Under the pieces are notes generated by a model. The model ran no database searches, had not been told where the DNA came from, and was given only the letters and a program-made list of their open reading frames with translations. DNA of 64,000 nt from a phage, in the sequence record OZ335964.1; one strand, written 5' to 3'. Positions 31,674 to 55,989 of the stretch are shown here, one piece after another. Each line of letters starts with the position of its first letter. Within the stretch, counting starts at the first letter, position 1. The position numbers and the translations under genes were made by a program.

Positions 31674-31926
31674 AGAGTTCTACTGCTTCGTCGCGTTCTG
31701 CTTCGAAGGTTTCGCGCTGTTGTTGGTGATACAGTTTAAACAGAATGCCCCACATTTTACCGTCTACGCCTAATTCTTCTTTAGCACGCTGCTTTATCTC
31801 TTTGATCTTATCGCCGTATGCTTCTTGAATGGTTTTCTGATCGCTGGCTTCTTTAATCAGTTGTGCCAGGGTATTTCCGTGCACTGCTTCGTCAAATACT
31901 ACTTTTTCTTTTTTCTGTTCAGTCAT
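31651..31926 (-). CDS. dsbA: DsbA-like dsDNA-binding protein (by synteny)
   Basis: 91 aa acidic/basic helical protein between 33 and rnh, as T4 dsbA; sequence identity not verifiable from memory. Confidence 0.4.
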   Translation of the reverse strand: MTEQKKEKVVFDEAVHGNTLAQLIKEASDQKTIQEAYGDKIKEIKQRAKEELGVDGKMWGILFKLYHQQQRETFEAERDEAVELYDRVFNA

Positions 31927-31930
31927 AATA

Positions 31931-32530
31931 TTAACCCTCTTTAGTCATTAATTGAAAACCACGTTCAGCTTTTGAGATTTCGCTAGGACGTAAATCGTCA
32001 CCCACATATTCTAGCATCATTTCTCGGATAATGTCAAGTGCTTTTTCATCACCTGATTTTAACTCGAACTCAAGTTCATAATGAGCAGTGTCGCCAATTC
32101 CTTCGCCTACTTTGCCATAATAGAAAGTGTCTTTGCACATTTCCACTATACCACAATCCATATCTAGAGTCAATGACTTGCGATATGTCATTACTTGCAT
32201 TATTGTAGTGATATAGTCGGAGTTTACCCCTAGACTATCAATAAAATGGACGAACTCATCCCAATTTGAAAATGTAATTTCCTCGCGGTTGAATAGTCCA
32301 GATTCATTATCACCAATTTTGACCATGATCTCTGATTTTCTACAGTCAAGTCGTGCATAAATTCCTTTTTGACGTAGAGCATGATCTTCGGTATCATAAT
32401 AAAATTCGTGTTTTAGAATGTTATCTCGGTCTAAGAGATTGTACCCGTCATACATTGCCACCCACAAATCACAGATGGTTTCGACGCCAATTTGTGAGTG
32501 TGCATAGTATTTTAATTCAAGTTCTTTCAT
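31931..32530 (-). CDS. CYTH-domain protein (triphosphate tunnel metalloenzyme / CyaB-like)
   Basis: 199 aa; N-terminal ELELKY (ExExK signature) and C-terminal acidic strand YELEFELK; not in T4 between dsbA and rnh. Confidence 0.5.
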   Translation of the reverse strand: MKELELKYYAHSQIGVETICDLWVAMYDGYNLLDRDNILKHEFYYDTEDHALRQKGIYARLDCRKSEIMVKIGDNESGLFNREEITFSNWDEFVHFIDSLGVNSDYITTIMQVMTYRKSLTLDMDCGIVEMCKDTFYYGKVGEGIGDTAHYELEFELKSGDEKALDIIREMMLEYVGDDLRPSEISKAERGFQLMTKEG

Positions 32531-45865: not shown

Positions 45866-46624
45866 TTACTTGCACACGTATTGATCTACATCAATTGCGC
45901 CACCGAATGTAGGATGACGTTTTTCAAATCGAATAGTTCCGTCGTTTGGTTCGAAAACGGAGTATTCATATAGATCTTTCTTGCCAACATTCTTATAAAA
46001 CCCGCCTTTAGTCATAACGGTTTCTTGTACGTTTGCTTTGTGTACGTTGTATTCGTCAATGTATACAAAATCAACCATCTTCCCATTTTTAATGGTTACT
46101 TTAAGATCTCCTGGTTGGTTTCCATATTTTGCATACAGTGGAGCTTCTTTAATTTTGGTGGAAATTCCATCTTTCATACTCCACTCATAACGAACGGTGC
46201 ATTGATAGGTAAAAGTTTCGACCTTCGGTTCTTCCACCACTTTTTCTTCCTGTTTCGGTTGTTCTTCGTCAACCTTCACGGAAGTCTCTGAATCGCTTTC
46301 TGACGCGGTTTCTTCTTTAGGTAATACATTCATCAAGTTTTGGATTTGAGCGTTGTATACAGCCTCCAGTGGCTGAATCTGCCCGATATTGATCATTGTA
46401 TCACGAACAGTTTTATTCCAGTTGCGTTGCTCTTGTTTCAGAGACGGATCAATCTTAACAGCCTTAACATATACTTCATGAAGTTTCGAATCCAGTGCGG
46501 AGATTGACTCATTAGCACAAATAAACTTCTCTGATTTGGTAGTGGCTTTAGCGCAATCAAAGGACGCAGCATTAGCACCGAAAGCAGTAGCAGAAAGAAC
46601 GATAGCAGCGATAATGTTTTTCAT
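45866..46624 (-). CDS. secreted protein with LprI/DUF1311-like N-terminal domain
   Basis: 252 aa from MKNIIAAIVLSATAFGANA (signal peptide); ASFDCAKATTKSEKFIC...LDSKL...QRNWNKTVRD pattern; track ORF's extension overlaps the promoter. Confidence 0.5.
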   Translation of the reverse strand: MKNIIAAIVLSATAFGANAASFDCAKATTKSEKFICANESISALDSKLHEVYVKAVKIDPSLKQEQRNWNKTVRDTMINIGQIQPLEAVYNAQIQNLMNVLPKEETASESDSETSVKVDEEQPKQEEKVVEEPKVETFTYQCTVRYEWSMKDGISTKIKEAPLYAKYGNQPGDLKVTIKNGKMVDFVYIDEYNVHKANVQETVMTKGGFYKNVGKKDLYEYSVFEPNDGTIRFEKRHPTFGGAIDVDQYVCK

Positions 46625-46658
46625 AATATATTCCTCAGTGTTTTGTCTTGATGGGAGT

Positions 46659-46687
46659 ATCTTACTACTCCCCTGTTCTGGTGTCAA
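46659..46687 (-). promoter_or_regulatory. early promoter cassette
   Basis: TTGACA - 17 nt - TAAGAT; -10 within GGGAGTA..TACTCCC hairpin. Confidence 0.5.
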
Positions 46688-51030: not shown

Positions 51031-52032
51031 TTAGTAATGGCTAAAACCTTCGGTTACATCTTCAACCACATAGTAACGATGACAGCGCATTTTGGCATTC
51101 GCATAATCTTTCGGGATACTTACAACGTGACGCGGATCAACTTTACATTTAATGATTCTGCCTCGTCCACCGCCATAGTGCGGAATATAGTGTTTCGCTG
51201 CAACATGGAGGCCATTAGAGCAAGTACGGTCATCATCTGGGTCCACGTCTTTACGCTTCATTTTAACCGTGCGCCCTGGGCTATTATCAAACGTATGCGT
51301 AAAGAAATCTTTATAATCAACATCAACACGTTTCCATGCATAGAAACAACCATCTTCCCCGATCTCAATGTCGTTGTGCTCTAAGAAGTCAAACAGACGA
51401 TCTACGGCCTTACGGCTAGGGTTTTTCTTGCACTTCTCAAAGAAGTTCAGATAGTGCGTATATGGCTTATTCTCTTTAATCGACTCCACAACTCGACGAG
51501 TCAGATTATTATCAAGAACAATATTATGATAATACACAATACCATTTTCGATACGGAAAGCGCCGTGATAATATACTTCAACCGCTTTCTTAATGTCAAT
51601 CAGCGTAATTGCTTTAATGAAATCATTCTGCTTAACTGCTTCCAGTGCTTCATTAAAGTTAACATGTGATGGATCAGCAGTATAAACAATGTCACCACAT
51701 GTAATAGTAATAAACTTAGTTGAGGCTATGGCTACGATTTTTGAGGAAGTAGTCACGGGCTTTTTTGCGCGTTCACCGCCTTTTCCTTTACTGGTTTTAC
51801 GGCGTGCTTTACGTTTTTCTAGTGCCTTGCGACCTTCCGCTACTGCGTCTTTCTGAATCAGTAATACACGGGAGGCAGTGCGACGAGATACACCAAATGC
51901 TGCCGCAAGTGCTTCGCGGGTAGTAAACTTACCTTCGCCCCACTGTTTAGCCAGTTTGATTTGTTTTGCAGAGTCCAGACATTGAACGTTACGGTCAGAG
52001 ACGGTGATTTTTGCTTTAGTCATAGTATTCAT
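51031..52032 (-). CDS. rIIB: RIIB protein
   Basis: 333 aa (T4 rIIB 312 aa); NPSRKAVDRLFDFL, FYAWKRV, CSNGLHV, YIPHYG, DPRHVVSIPKDYANAKMR, VVEDVTE match T4 rIIB. Confidence 0.85.
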   Translation of the reverse strand: MNTMTKAKITVSDRNVQCLDSAKQIKLAKQWGEGKFTTREALAAAFGVSRRTASRVLLIQKDAVAEGRKALEKRKARRKTSKGKGGERAKKPVTTSSKIVAIASTKFITITCGDIVYTADPSHVNFNEALEAVKQNDFIKAITLIDIKKAVEVYYHGAFRIENGIVYYHNIVLDNNLTRRVVESIKENKPYTHYLNFFEKCKKNPSRKAVDRLFDFLEHNDIEIGEDGCFYAWKRVDVDYKDFFTHTFDNSPGRTVKMKRKDVDPDDDRTCSNGLHVAAKHYIPHYGGGRGRIIKCKVDPRHVVSIPKDYANAKMRCHRYYVVEDVTEGFSHY

Positions 52033-52084
52033 TCCTCTATTAGTGGGCGACTCTCGCCGCCCGATTCACATCATTATACCAGAA

Positions 52085-52216
52085 TTATTTTGCTTCTACA
52101 ACCTTGCGGATTGTGCGGTCTGATACATTATAGATTCGTGCCAGTTCGCCTTTAGTCAAGCCGCGAGCGTATTGTTTACGGATGGTTTCTTTCTGGATAG
52201 CGGTCAGTTTAGTCAT
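52085..52216 (-). CDS. small helix-turn-helix protein (43 aa), below track threshold
   Basis: Hand-translated MTKLTAIQKETIRKQYARGLTKGELARIYNVSDRTIRKVVEAK; sits between rIIA stop and rIIB start. Confidence 0.4.
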   Translation of the reverse strand: MTKLTAIQKETIRKQYARGLTKGELARIYNVSDRTIRKVVEAK

Positions 52217-52227
52217 AATATCACCTC

Positions 52228-54336
52228 TTAAAATTTAACATTCTTAACCAGTTTCATAAAGTCTTGTGCTCGTTTGTCGTTGTGCAGAATACGATACCAG
52301 TTATCTACAATATCATACAGTAACGGGCTATTCTCTTTAAACTTCGCACAAACTGCTTTAATTCGTTCGTTTGCTGCCGTGAATTTTTCATCACAAATCT
52401 TTTTAGTTTCTTCGTCCATAATCCAACGGGTGTGAAGGAGTAACTTGGAAACCACTTTATTATAATGACGACCGTACAGTCTGTCAATAAATTCTGGAAC
52501 ACAGCGTTCTAATTCATCGTCATGATACAACATAGTGATCACACCCAGATATTCGCCATACCCCAGATGATTGGTCTTAACCTTCTTAGCCAGACCAGCC
52601 AGCTTACCGCGAACAAATTCTAGCGCACATTCCAGTTGTTCGTCAACGAGATATTTTTGTGTCTCATTACGGGTAATAATATACTTTGTTACCCCGAAGT
52701 AGTCAAGCGCCGTGTGTAATGTATTTTCATTATAGATCGATTGACGGCTACGGCTTTCGAATGCATCACCCACGCGGAACATGTGCAAGCCTGATAACTC
52801 GCGAATCTCTGCCGCTTTCATGTGATGGCTGGTTTTATGCCAACTGTCACCGATCTTTTCCACAATATACACGTTAGGCAGCTTAGGAGTCGCTTCACGC
52901 TGTACACGTTCTGTCTTCTCCGGCTTAACTGCTTTAGCACGCAGGTCGTCGGCCTCGGATACCTTAATCACGGTCATTTCAGATTCATCATAATACTGTT
53001 TGATGTACTCGAAAGTCTCCATATGTTTTTCGTTGTTCTGACGGAACACCAGTACCTTTTTATTGATGCCGTATTCCTGGACCATGCCGTTAAGAGTCAG
53101 TGCACGCAGTTTCGGTTTATCGGTATCATCAATAAGACATGTAATATCTTCTTTATGCATCCATACAAAATGCGTAATGTTGTATTGACTGCTAACGAAA
53201 GCAGGGCGCAATTTACTGATTGTATGTCGAGTACGATACAGAGTATACACTTGACCTTCTACGTCATTAGGCGAATCTTTACCAGCATTAACAAACTTAT
53301 TATAGATTTCTACCGGATCATCCCATTGTCCGATCTTACCCATCTTGCTAATAATATTGCGTTGAGTCGATGAATACTCGCTCATAAATTGCGCAAGTTT
53401 GCGCTCTGTTTTAATGTTGGCGATCTTTTCTTTAACCTTTTCCAACATCATTTCATTGATTTCTGCAATGCGTTTTTCGATGTTCGCTTTAGTCTCAATT
53501 GACAAGTGAACTTCTTCACGCGATGGCATCAGGTCCAGATCACCCAACTCAAAATTAATGTAAATGGTCTGGTGCTGGCGGTTTACAGCTTCTAACCATG
53601 TTCCGCGAACATATTCATACGGGATCGGATACTGGATCTTACCCATGATTGCATATACCACATAGGAATCGTTATCACGTCCATTACACACATAATAATT
53701 ATCAAAGCTAGGGAAATAATTAATTTCGATGGCATTGATATTAGGTTTGTGTTCCCCAAAATGACGCAGTACAAATTGTGCTTCTCGATGCCATGTCTGA
53801 ATATCTTTTTCCTTCACCGGAATAGTGATTTTCAGACCGTTGTCTTCATAGGTCGGTTCGTCGAAAATCTGCACCATTTTCGGCATAGAGTTTTGCACGA
53901 ATGCAGTAAAGCCATAAGCACGACCATTGTAGTAGTTTACGATTGTAAAGGTGTCGGTGTAGCTATAAGCAGATTTCGCACCTAAACCAAAAGATCCGAT
54001 ATAATCATTAGTCTGGTCTTTGGTTGATTCAAAGTAAACAGTAAACAGTTGTTCTAATTCTTTCTTAGACGGAATACCAGTACCATAATCACGCACAGAA
54101 AAATACGGTTCGATTGCAGTCGGTAAATGAATATCAAACGGACGATCTAAGGTTCCGGCTTCTTTGTGAGTGTCGGTAGCATTACATGAATACTCACGGA
54201 CGCAAGCACGCTCACAATATTGATAAGTGTTCTTAGAAAGCACCATAAAAGCCTTGCTACTTGCTTTCAGTGAAAAATCAACCGCACCGCTCAAGTCACT
54301 GCCAAATACTTCTTCATTATCAATATGCATTTTCAT
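52228..54336 (-). CDS. rIIA: RIIA protein (GHKL ATPase-like N-terminal domain)
   Basis: 702 aa (T4 rIIA 725 aa); DYGTGIP and GSFGLGAKSAYSYTDTF Bergerat-fold motifs; adjacent to rIIB. Confidence 0.85.
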   Translation of the reverse strand: MKMHIDNEEVFGSDLSGAVDFSLKASSKAFMVLSKNTYQYCERACVREYSCNATDTHKEAGTLDRPFDIHLPTAIEPYFSVRDYGTGIPSKKELEQLFTVYFESTKDQTNDYIGSFGLGAKSAYSYTDTFTIVNYYNGRAYGFTAFVQNSMPKMVQIFDEPTYEDNGLKITIPVKEKDIQTWHREAQFVLRHFGEHKPNINAIEINYFPSFDNYYVCNGRDNDSYVVYAIMGKIQYPIPYEYVRGTWLEAVNRQHQTIYINFELGDLDLMPSREEVHLSIETKANIEKRIAEINEMMLEKVKEKIANIKTERKLAQFMSEYSSTQRNIISKMGKIGQWDDPVEIYNKFVNAGKDSPNDVEGQVYTLYRTRHTISKLRPAFVSSQYNITHFVWMHKEDITCLIDDTDKPKLRALTLNGMVQEYGINKKVLVFRQNNEKHMETFEYIKQYYDESEMTVIKVSEADDLRAKAVKPEKTERVQREATPKLPNVYIVEKIGDSWHKTSHHMKAAEIRELSGLHMFRVGDAFESRSRQSIYNENTLHTALDYFGVTKYIITRNETQKYLVDEQLECALEFVRGKLAGLAKKVKTNHLGYGEYLGVITMLYHDDELERCVPEFIDRLYGRHYNKVVSKLLLHTRWIMDEETKKICDEKFTAANERIKAVCAKFKENSPLLYDIVDNWYRILHNDKRAQDFMKLVKNVKF

Positions 54337-54350
54337 AATATAATCCTCAC

Positions 54351-54608
54351 TTAATTAAAATCTTCTTTGTCCATCTCTGCGTAGATTGCATCCCACGCCC
54401 ATAAATCAATAAACGCATTATATGTCACGGTGCAATCGTTGTCAATCACTTCTTTCGCATATTTCTTGATGTTTTCGTAGGAAACTTGCGGATTAATTTT
54501 GTTCTTCCGAAGGTGCGCATATTCATACCTCAAACATTTCATAAACAGGTCCATCGATTTCTTTTCTCGATGACACTTGGCGATCATAAAATCAAAACTT
54601 CGACTCAT
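54351..54608 (-). CDS. hypothetical protein
   Basis: 85 aa ORF upstream of rIIA. Confidence 0.45.
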   Translation of the reverse strand: MSRSFDFMIAKCHREKKSMDLFMKCLRYEYAHLRKNKINPQVSYENIKKYAKEVIDNDCTVTYNAFIDLWAWDAIYAEMDKEDFN

Positions 54609-55367: not shown

Positions 55368-55425
55368 TATTAAATCCTCATAAAAGAAAAGGGAGACTCC
55401 CATTATAGAGAATCTCCCTTGTATG

Positions 55426-55989
55426 TCAACTAAAATTTAAAGATGCAAACTCCCCGTGATGAATTTTTGCATATTCATCATATGCTCTAGCGGCTTCCTC
55501 CTGAGTAGCAAACGATCCTATGTATTTTCTGTATCCGTTTATCCTTATTTGTGCTTGCCACGGTCTTTTGCTAGATCCTTTGCGATGAGTAACACCATTA
55601 TATATGCTCGTGCACCCGTCCATTTTCTTTTTATTGTACATGTTTTGTTGTTGTGTTGCCTCCCGTAAATTTGGTGGATTGTTGTTTTCTGGATTCCCGT
55701 CTATGTGGTCTATTACCTTAACCTGTGTTCCATATTCAAGAAACCAGACAATTCTATGTACAAGATATGTAGATGTTCTCTTTTTAACCTTATTGTAAAC
55801 ATCTATTGCCAAATGACCGTAATTTAACTTTTTTGTTTTTACTTTATCACCGACTCGGTAGAAATATCCCTCTGGTAGACCATTAAAAGACGGACTATTT
55901 GTTTTGTGATATAGAACACCTTCCGTGTGTTCAAATCTGCGTTTTAATTCCTCTTGAATTTCAGTATTCCAAAATTTCGCACTTTTCAT
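55426..55989 (-). CDS. HNH homing endonuclease with AP2-like domain
   Basis: 187 aa; HNH_3 motif IDHIDGNPENNNPPNLR..QQQN plus AP2-like SIYNGVTHRKGSSKRPWQAQIRINGYRKYIGSFATQEEAARAYD; immediately downstream of gene 39. Confidence 0.7.
   Translation of the reverse strand: MKSAKFWNTEIQEELKRRFEHTEGVLYHKTNSPSFNGLPEGYFYRVGDKVKTKKLNYGHLAIDVYNKVKKRTSTYLVHRIVWFLEYGTQVKVIDHIDGNPENNNPPNLREATQQQNMYNKKKMDGCTSIYNGVTHRKGSSKRPWQAQIRINGYRKYIGSFATQEEAARAYDEYAKIHHGEFASLNFS

Follow-up and report, generated by a model that had tools for sequence, protein, structure and literature searches.

The rII region is a classic locus of molecular genetics, and the mode of action of its two proteins, rIIA and rIIB, is unknown beyond the countering of RexAB (PMC2993671, PMC11879866). 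The helix-turn-helix (HTH) of rIIB has led to its reading as a transcription factor (PMC7824862), and rIIB expression triggers a bacterial gasdermin/CARD defence (bioRxiv 10.1101/2023.05.28.542683). The phage RB49 has no detectable motA and no middle promoters (PMC1524935). In T4 and in Jiaodavirus, the HTH is found immediately after rIIA as the N-terminal part of rIIB, fused to a rIIB core of ~230 C-terminal residues with a T-C-S-x-G-L-H-V motif. The start of T4 rIIB tolerates large changes, as seen with the r1589 deletion and the FC0 frameshift region, and this would fit a separable N-terminal module.

In the window examined here (the whole stretch of phage DNA analysed, 64,000 nucleotides), a small free-standing ORF of 43 codons, ORF43, is located between the two rII genes (Table 1). 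The window is from an RB49-like T4-type coliphage of the genus Krischvirus, and the 3.4-kb stretch around ORF43 is 95-99% identical to 59 phage records. The original prediction of a 43-aa ORF between rIIA and rIIB was correct in position and sequence (translation MTKLTAIQKETIRKQYARGLTKGELARIYNVSDRTIRKVVEAK); the coding strand is the minus strand, as it is for every gene in the rIIA, ORF43 and rIIB region. ORF43 begins 11 nt past the rIIA stop and ends 61 nt ahead of the rIIB start, which was taken to be the second ATG (52023) following the annotation in relatives. Considered jointly, the results are best explained, with a probability of about 0.6, by ORF43 being the middle cistron of a rIIA-ORF43-rIIB operon in Krischvirus and in metagenomic relatives. 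Most likely, its product would be a minimal DNA-binding protein that is co-expressed with rIIA and rIIB.

Table 1. Features of the rIIA-ORF43-rIIB region in the window, and the tandem-module rIIB of a metagenomic relative
Feature	Position	Strand	Remarks
rIIA homologue, 702 aa	54336..52228	minus	upstream cistron; phrog_612, E 9e-188
Perfect sigma-70-type promoter, TTGACA-17-TATAAT	52487..52459	minus	in 3' end of rIIA, 243 nt upstream of ORF43 ATG
rIIA stop, TAA	52230..52228	minus
ORF43 Shine-Dalgarno, GAGGTGAT	52227..52220	minus	3 nt before ATG, directly after rIIA stop
ORF43 CDS, 43 codons + TAA	52216..52085	minus	free-standing three-helix HTH (predicted); RB49p274, phrog_15481
ORF43 start, ATG	52216..52214	minus
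Promoter-like element, TTGTAG, 17-nt spacer, TGGTATAAT	52101..52073	minus	reads toward rIIB
-35 box, TTGTAG	52101..52096	minus	within ORF43 codons V-V-E
ORF43 stop, TAA	52087..52085	minus
Extended -10 box, TGGTATAAT	52081..52073	minus
Stem-loop, GGGCGGC-GAGA-GUCGCCC	52062..52045	minus	7-bp stem, 4-nt loop; the GGCGA..TCGCC hairpin
rIIB Shine-Dalgarno, GAGGA	52037..52033	minus
rIIB homologue, 330 aa	52023..51031	minus	phrog_609, E 2.4e-106
L004 rIIB, 459 aa	L004:4685-6064		ENA ERZ27260015 k141_60519

ORF43 is an already catalogued, ordinary kind of phage gene. The identical protein is on record from 515 contigs and is annotated as "hypothetical protein" in Krischvirus records such as that of RB49 (RB49p274, NC_005066). 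One record names it 'DNA binding HTH domain protein', UniRef uses 'HTH psq-type domain-containing protein', and one source applies the label 'sigma24 family'. In PHROGs, ORF43 matches a family of unknown function, phrog_15481 (E 3e-34, 117.7 bits), with residues 1-43 aligned to positions 1-43 of 43, so that ORF43 makes up the entire family profile. Literature searches on ORF43 or on the function of the rIIB HTH found nothing specific. What is new here is modest: the ORF43 module is of the same type as the N-terminal domain of rIIB, and ORF43 marks a clade in which this module is free, fused and in tandem.

The ORF43 Shine-Dalgarno (SD) sequence is an 8-nt complement to the 16S rRNA 3' end, and the homologues in all the other lineages have SD boxes reading GAGGTGA, AAGGTGA, GGTGAT or GAGAGGTAA. 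Judged from these signals, ORF43 is translated from its own strong ribosome-binding site. By tblastn, ORF43 was intact in 59/59 Krischvirus records, with one site per genome and an amino-acid identity of at least 99% in 54 of the records and of 95-99% in the other five. No paralogue appeared when the whole window, translated in all six frames, was scanned with the ORF43 HMM. Protein searches recovered homologues of 43-45 codons and 69-86% identity from six further metagenomic lineages (L004, L005/L006, L010/L011, L012, L013 and L014), whose contigs were analysed. The homologue is directly upstream of rIIB in all six, and the gene preceding it is full-length rIIA-sized wherever the contig covers it, with the exception of L012. 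In L012 (L012:57-1296, Logan SRR8048112_22734), the upstream gene encodes 236 aa comprising just the N- and C-terminal ends of rIIA, which reflects either an internal deletion or an assembly chimera. Outside these lineages, the more distant T4-like phages L015, L016 and Jiaodavirus, whose rIIB proteins are at most 48% identical, have no ORF in the rIIA-rIIB gap, and rIIB directly follows rIIA. A scan of IMG/VR returned only two Krischvirus contigs and one unrelated HTH (L023).

Nei-Gojobori analysis of the six lineages tested gave pairwise pS values of 0.47-0.91, which are mostly saturated, versus pN values of 0.02-0.26, and dN/dS was 0.02-0.30 wherever dS was finite. Across the family 25 of the 43 positions are invariant, including the entire recognition helix, and the stretch T21-R37 is invariant bar two conservative positions. 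On these sequence comparisons, ORF43 is a real gene under strong purifying selection. The original prediction would have been in doubt had the frame been disrupted in close relatives, or had the ORF been a diverged duplicate of rIIB DNA lacking start signals. Neither is the case, because the frame is undisrupted in all 59 Krischvirus records and the six divergent lineages and ORF43 has its own SD and ATG. A 32-aa protein (P0040) was considered as a disrupted ORF43 frame and rejected. Its contig (L020:2001-2128, ENA ERZ16268060 scaffold_22125) matches the window exactly as far as codon 12, where it switches abruptly to dense substitutions that run to the scaffold end, and we read it as a probable assembly artefact.

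The HTH-like sequence that had been noticed, GLTKGELARIYNVSDRTIRK, is beyond chance. Residues 2-43 of ORF43 match Pfam PF04218 CENP-B_N (psq-type HTH) with 26.0 bits against a gathering score of 21.2, and three helices are predicted by AlphaFold2. Many weaker HTH families rank behind CENP-B_N, including PF04545 Sigma70_r4 (sigma-70 region 4; residues 2-38, 21.1 bits versus a gathering score of 24.1, E 2.2e-4), PF02796 HTH_7 (resolvase HTH; 18.3 versus 23.8), PF08765 Mor (17.6 versus 24.9) and HTH_28, all of which fall below threshold. The AlphaFold2 model, for which a 7-sequence family alignment was the input, has a pLDDT of 90.6 and helices at residues 6-18, 22-29 and 33-41. Foldseek searches of the PDB with this model returned only HTH DNA-binding domains, with E-values that were weak, as expected at 43 residues. 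The best matches were the N-terminal HTH of IS21 IstA (TMq 0.81, rmsd 1.1 Å), the DNA-binding domain of Hin (TMq 0.83), gamma-delta resolvase, CENP-B and NarL/LuxR types. The agreement with IstA and Hin (TMq 0.81-0.83, rmsd 1.1-1.5 Å) identifies the predicted structure as the three-helix fold.

ORF43 thus has the same predicted fold as the C-terminal HTH of Hin and gamma-delta resolvase, the N-terminal HTH of IstA and the CENP-B/psq domain (TMq 0.74-0.83; rmsd to IstA, Hin and CENP-B 1.1-1.6 Å), but the sequence identity to this group is merely 17-28%. Unlike these proteins, ORF43 has neither a recombinase or transposase domain nor an evident N-terminal minor-groove arm. The DNA-binding domain of Hin has 47-52 residues and binds DNA alone, and ORF43 is close to it in size. 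Sequence searches of the PDB with rIIB and with the ORF43 profile found nothing significant. In BFVD, the structural neighbours of the ORF43 model were small phage HTH proteins, HNH, NUMOD4 and group I intron endonucleases, and rIIB proteins, including the fused RIIA-RIIB of RB43. The ORF43 protein has a mass of 4,979 Da and a pI of 10.4. Collectively, the models show the predicted product to be a single three-helix HTH with no other domain, and such a fold, together with a net charge of +6.5, suggests that it probably binds DNA.

Comparison with rIIB proteins placed ORF43 in the same module type as their N-terminal HTH. Residues 7-45 of T4 rIIB (NC_000866) align with ORF43 at 41% identity, and the best non-Krischvirus tblastn matches in the phage collection were the extreme N-termini of Jiaodavirus rIIB (52.5% over 39 residues), in which the HTH spans residues 5-44. 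The pattern common to ORF43 and the rIIB HTH is L-T/D-x-x-Q-K-x-x-I ... G-x-T/S-K-x-x-L-A-x-x-Y/F-N/G-V-S-x-R/D-T-I-R/G-R/K-V. An N-terminal stretch aligned with the ORF43 HMM in 81 of the 120 rIIB homologues, typically over positions 4-43 and with a best score of 33.5 bits. Using hhalign, ORF43 matched 68 non-redundant rIIB N-termini of other T4-like phages with a probability of 98.9%, which assigns it to the rIIB-type N-terminal HTH module. The rIIB core (PF26926/phrog_609) is absent from ORF43, which matches just positions 756-795 of the 1055-position phrog_609 profile (E 0.009). ORF43 is therefore free-standing, in contrast to the rIIB HTH of T4 and Jiaodavirus.

When ORF43 was compared with the rIIB N-terminus of its own clade, as had been suggested, the similarity was evident at the profile level (95.2% by hhalign against the rIIB N-termini of the ORF43-bearing Krischvirus clade) but not by BLASTP, which found nothing against the neighbouring rIIB (E 26). 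The ORF43 HMM scored only 2.2 bits on the same protein, and these two results speak against ORF43 being a recent copy of its neighbour. The neighbouring rIIB keeps a divergent HTH of its own, with AlphaFold helices at residues 18-29, 36-42 and 47-56 (pLDDT ~97), followed by a low-confidence basic linker (82-92) and the core; a Foldseek search of the PDB with this rIIB model gave no meaningful match. In L004, the rIIB core is preceded by three HTH modules in tandem, besides the free ORF upstream. Module number and linkage vary at the rII site, since T4 has one fused copy, L004 three fused copies and one free, and the window one fused and one free. Of the proposal that ORF43 is a remnant duplication of the rIIB HTH, the shared module type is supported by hhalign and tblastn; the term remnant does not fit an ORF with its own SD and ATG and an intact frame. 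The strong selection that has maintained a free rIIB-like HTH in the rIIA-rIIB gap shows the module to be mobile and separable; depending on the phage, it occurs as one fused copy, as three fused copies or as a free copy.

The GGCGA..TCGCC hairpin that had been described as preceding ORF43 exists. However, it precedes ORF43 only by plus-strand numbering; as transcribed, the hairpin follows the ORF43 stop at a distance of 22 nt and comes 8 nt before the rIIB SD. The order of signals is the ORF43 stop, the -10 box, the stem-loop, the rIIB SD and the rIIB ATG, and folding of the 61-nt spacer between ORF43 and rIIB gave z = -2.0. The same -35 and -10 boxes are annotated in the GEC-3S record. In G37-3 (vB_EcoM_G37-3, MK327941; L019:128-215), an 11-nt deletion between two AAAATAAT repeats has removed the -10 box, and ORF43, its stop and the stem-loop are kept despite the deletion. 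Six lineages have a 7-10-bp GC-rich stem-loop at the same place, formed by unrelated sequences with z-scores of -1.5 to -4.7, and in three lineages the -10 box is enclosed in it. L012 has neither stem-loop nor promoter, and the stop of its small ORF overlaps the rIIB ATG (TGATG). No T-run follows the stem-loops, a simple terminator scan reported nothing at this site, and Rfam detected no family in 51800-52600. Our reading is that the stem-loop is an ordinary T4-type intercistronic structure of rIIB expression, which may be a 5' hairpin on the rIIB transcript or the 3' end of upstream transcripts. The promoter-like element and the stem-loop would serve the expression of rIIB, not of ORF43. The inverted repeat was rejected as an ORF43 operator because no two lineages have the same repeat sequence, whereas the recognition helix never changes, and no conserved candidate operator for ORF43 was found. 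A TGCTT on the plus strand at ~52090 was likewise rejected as a MotA box, being on the wrong strand and having no -10 partner; RB49, moreover, is without MotA. Recoding that would join ORF43 to rIIB was rejected as well, since the +1 frame, in which rIIB is read, is closed by a spacer TGA.

ORF43 may be transcribed from early-type promoters upstream. By its match to the consensus, the perfect sigma-70-type box in the 3' end of rIIA is a candidate for an early promoter that could drive joint transcription of ORF43 and rIIB. Three perfect 12/12 sigma-70 consensus promoters (TTGACA-16/17-TATAAT) occur on the minus strand (52459-52487, 54417-54445 and 55402-55429), one inside the rIIA 3' end and one just upstream of rIIA, and they are typical of T4-type early promoters. 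In L015 (L015:3918-4002, Logan SRR24744578_11021), a T4-like lineage without ORF43, the rIIA-rIIB gap contains a UUCG-tetraloop hairpin and then a GTTTAC-N17-TATAAT early-type promoter, in the reverse of the order in the window. The start regions of ORF43 and rIIB have 13/14 nt in common (ATAYTATGACTAAA). Three copies of the motif ATAYTATGACTRAA are present in the 64 kb versus 0.08 expected, each exactly on a start codon on the minus strand: at 52015-52028 (rIIB), at 52208-52221 (ORF43) and at 31918-31931 (a 91-aa ORF at 31926). The motif is absent from the other lineages and could be a common site for translation initiation or for a RegA-like translational repressor, or a start context that is favoured.

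Searching 1.84 billion protein representatives with the ORF43 profile gave 304 matches at E <= 0.001. Many of the top matches are proteins of 4-7 tandem HTH repeats; P0007-P0024 include many metagenomic proteins of 200-720 aa made of 4-7 tandem copies of the ORF43-type HTH. The best single-domain matches (39-49 bits) included small free HTH proteins as well as the C-terminal HTHs of HNH_3/NUMOD4 and GIY-YIG endonucleases, and the endonucleases (P0025 with 48.8 bits, P0043 with 46.8, and also P0076, P0101 and P0109) gave the highest single-domain scores outside the ORF43 family. By these profile scores, ORF43 is not uniquely rIIB-like, as the HTH domains of homing endonucleases outscore every rIIB HTH (33.5 bits at best). 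Duplication of rIIB is consequently not the sole reading of its origin. A fair, if unlikely, rival is that an HNH or GIY-YIG endonuclease once occupied the rIIA-rIIB gap and that only its DNA-binding HTH survived, domesticated into a free DNA-binding protein that might, for example, occupy or protect a target site or repress a promoter. The scores, the HNH, NUMOD4 and group I intron endonucleases among the BFVD neighbours, and the frequent presence of such genes between conserved genes of T4-type phages are in keeping with this origin. Against it, the comparison of scores is biased because the endonuclease set was chosen by similarity from a huge library. Moreover, no catalytic domain is present, all 43 residues being HTH; ORF43 is without a nuclease domain in the window phage and in every relative, and no nuclease ORF, let alone a full-length endonuclease, was found in the rIIA-rIIB gap in any lineage examined. 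In all seven lineages the first codon of the ORF coincides exactly with the beginning of the HTH and is preceded by an SD belonging to the ORF, and the position favours the link to rIIB because rIIB in other phages begins with the same module right after rIIA.

HTH modules of the ORF43 type can also mediate protein contacts, and ORF43 might be a protein-binding module, either a sigma-70 region-4-like mimic acting on RNA polymerase in a phage lineage without MotA and AsiA or a small subunit docking on rIIA or rIIB. This seems rather improbable. The weak Sigma70_r4 match, the 'sigma24 family' label, the strict synteny with rIIA and rIIB and the lack of detectable motA and middle promoters in RB49 (PMC1524935) are consistent with it, as is the distribution of AsiA: none of the 10 ORFs tested in the interval from gene 52 to holin t of the window matched the AsiA or MotA Pfam families, and the related lineage L015, which has no ORF43, has an AsiA gene a few kb downstream of the rIIA-rIIB gap. 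However, the Sigma70_r4 score is under the gathering score, the AsiA correlation involves very few lineages, and nucleic-acid binding is the likelier role for a strongly positive protein with structural neighbours that are DNA-bound. By our alignment, the -35-contact residues R584/E585 of E. coli sigma-70 correspond to D33/R34 in ORF43 and are not conserved. It is very improbable that ORF43 is instead a regulatory upstream ORF whose translation itself sets rIIB expression, through coupling or through unfolding of the stem-loop. The TGATG overlap in L012, and elsewhere the stem-loop between the ORF and the rIIB SD, would suit such a role, but a leader ORF would not hold 25/43 residues invariant or fold into a confident domain, most lineages have a promoter-like element between the ORF and rIIB, and no fusion product is possible because of the spacer TGA. 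Barely credible is a non-functional relic, be it a copy of the rIIB 5' end in decay or an ORF arisen by chance. The profile-level similarity to rIIB HTHs and the 13/14-nt match of the start regions point that way; the start motif, however, is also present at a third, unrelated gene start and missing in other lineages, and the low dN/dS at saturated synonymous sites, the intact frame, length and SD in 59 genomes and six divergent lineages, and the confident predicted fold all argue against decay.

As the middle cistron of the rIIA-ORF43-rIIB operon, ORF43 would bind nucleic acid, most likely a specific DNA site, via its invariant helix 2-turn-helix 3 (TKGELARxYNVSDRTIR), with DNA contact through helix 3 (S32-K38). 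Its sole tie to rII function is the synteny with rIIA and rIIB; it may act early in infection together with, or in the pathway of, rIIA and rIIB, possibly as a free trans-acting counterpart of the rIIB-type HTH. It is tentatively possible that RB49-like rII consists of three components, in which ORF43 is the canonical rIIB-type HTH split off as a trans-acting subunit and the HTH fused to rIIB has diverged. If so, the DNA-binding part of rII function would be physically separable from the rIIB core, giving a way to probe the role of the rIIB HTH, be it, for instance, in the countering of RexAB or in the triggering of gasdermin/CARD defences. Being very small and easy to synthesise, the ORF43 protein would also be a useful reagent in the search for the DNA or protein that this module type targets. 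The suggestion in the original prediction of a small regulator is plausible for a basic, minimal HTH of confident predicted fold that is under strong purifying selection. More speculatively, ORF43 might be a transcription factor for a lineage without MotA and AsiA, which is conceivable because RB49 is without motA and middle promoters and the window has no AsiA or MotA Pfam match in the interval from gene 52 to holin t, where T4 carries asiA and motA. A 273-aa ORF in this interval (45866-46687, minus strand) matched Pfam LprI (lysozyme inhibitor) with 24.5 bits versus a gathering score of 22.
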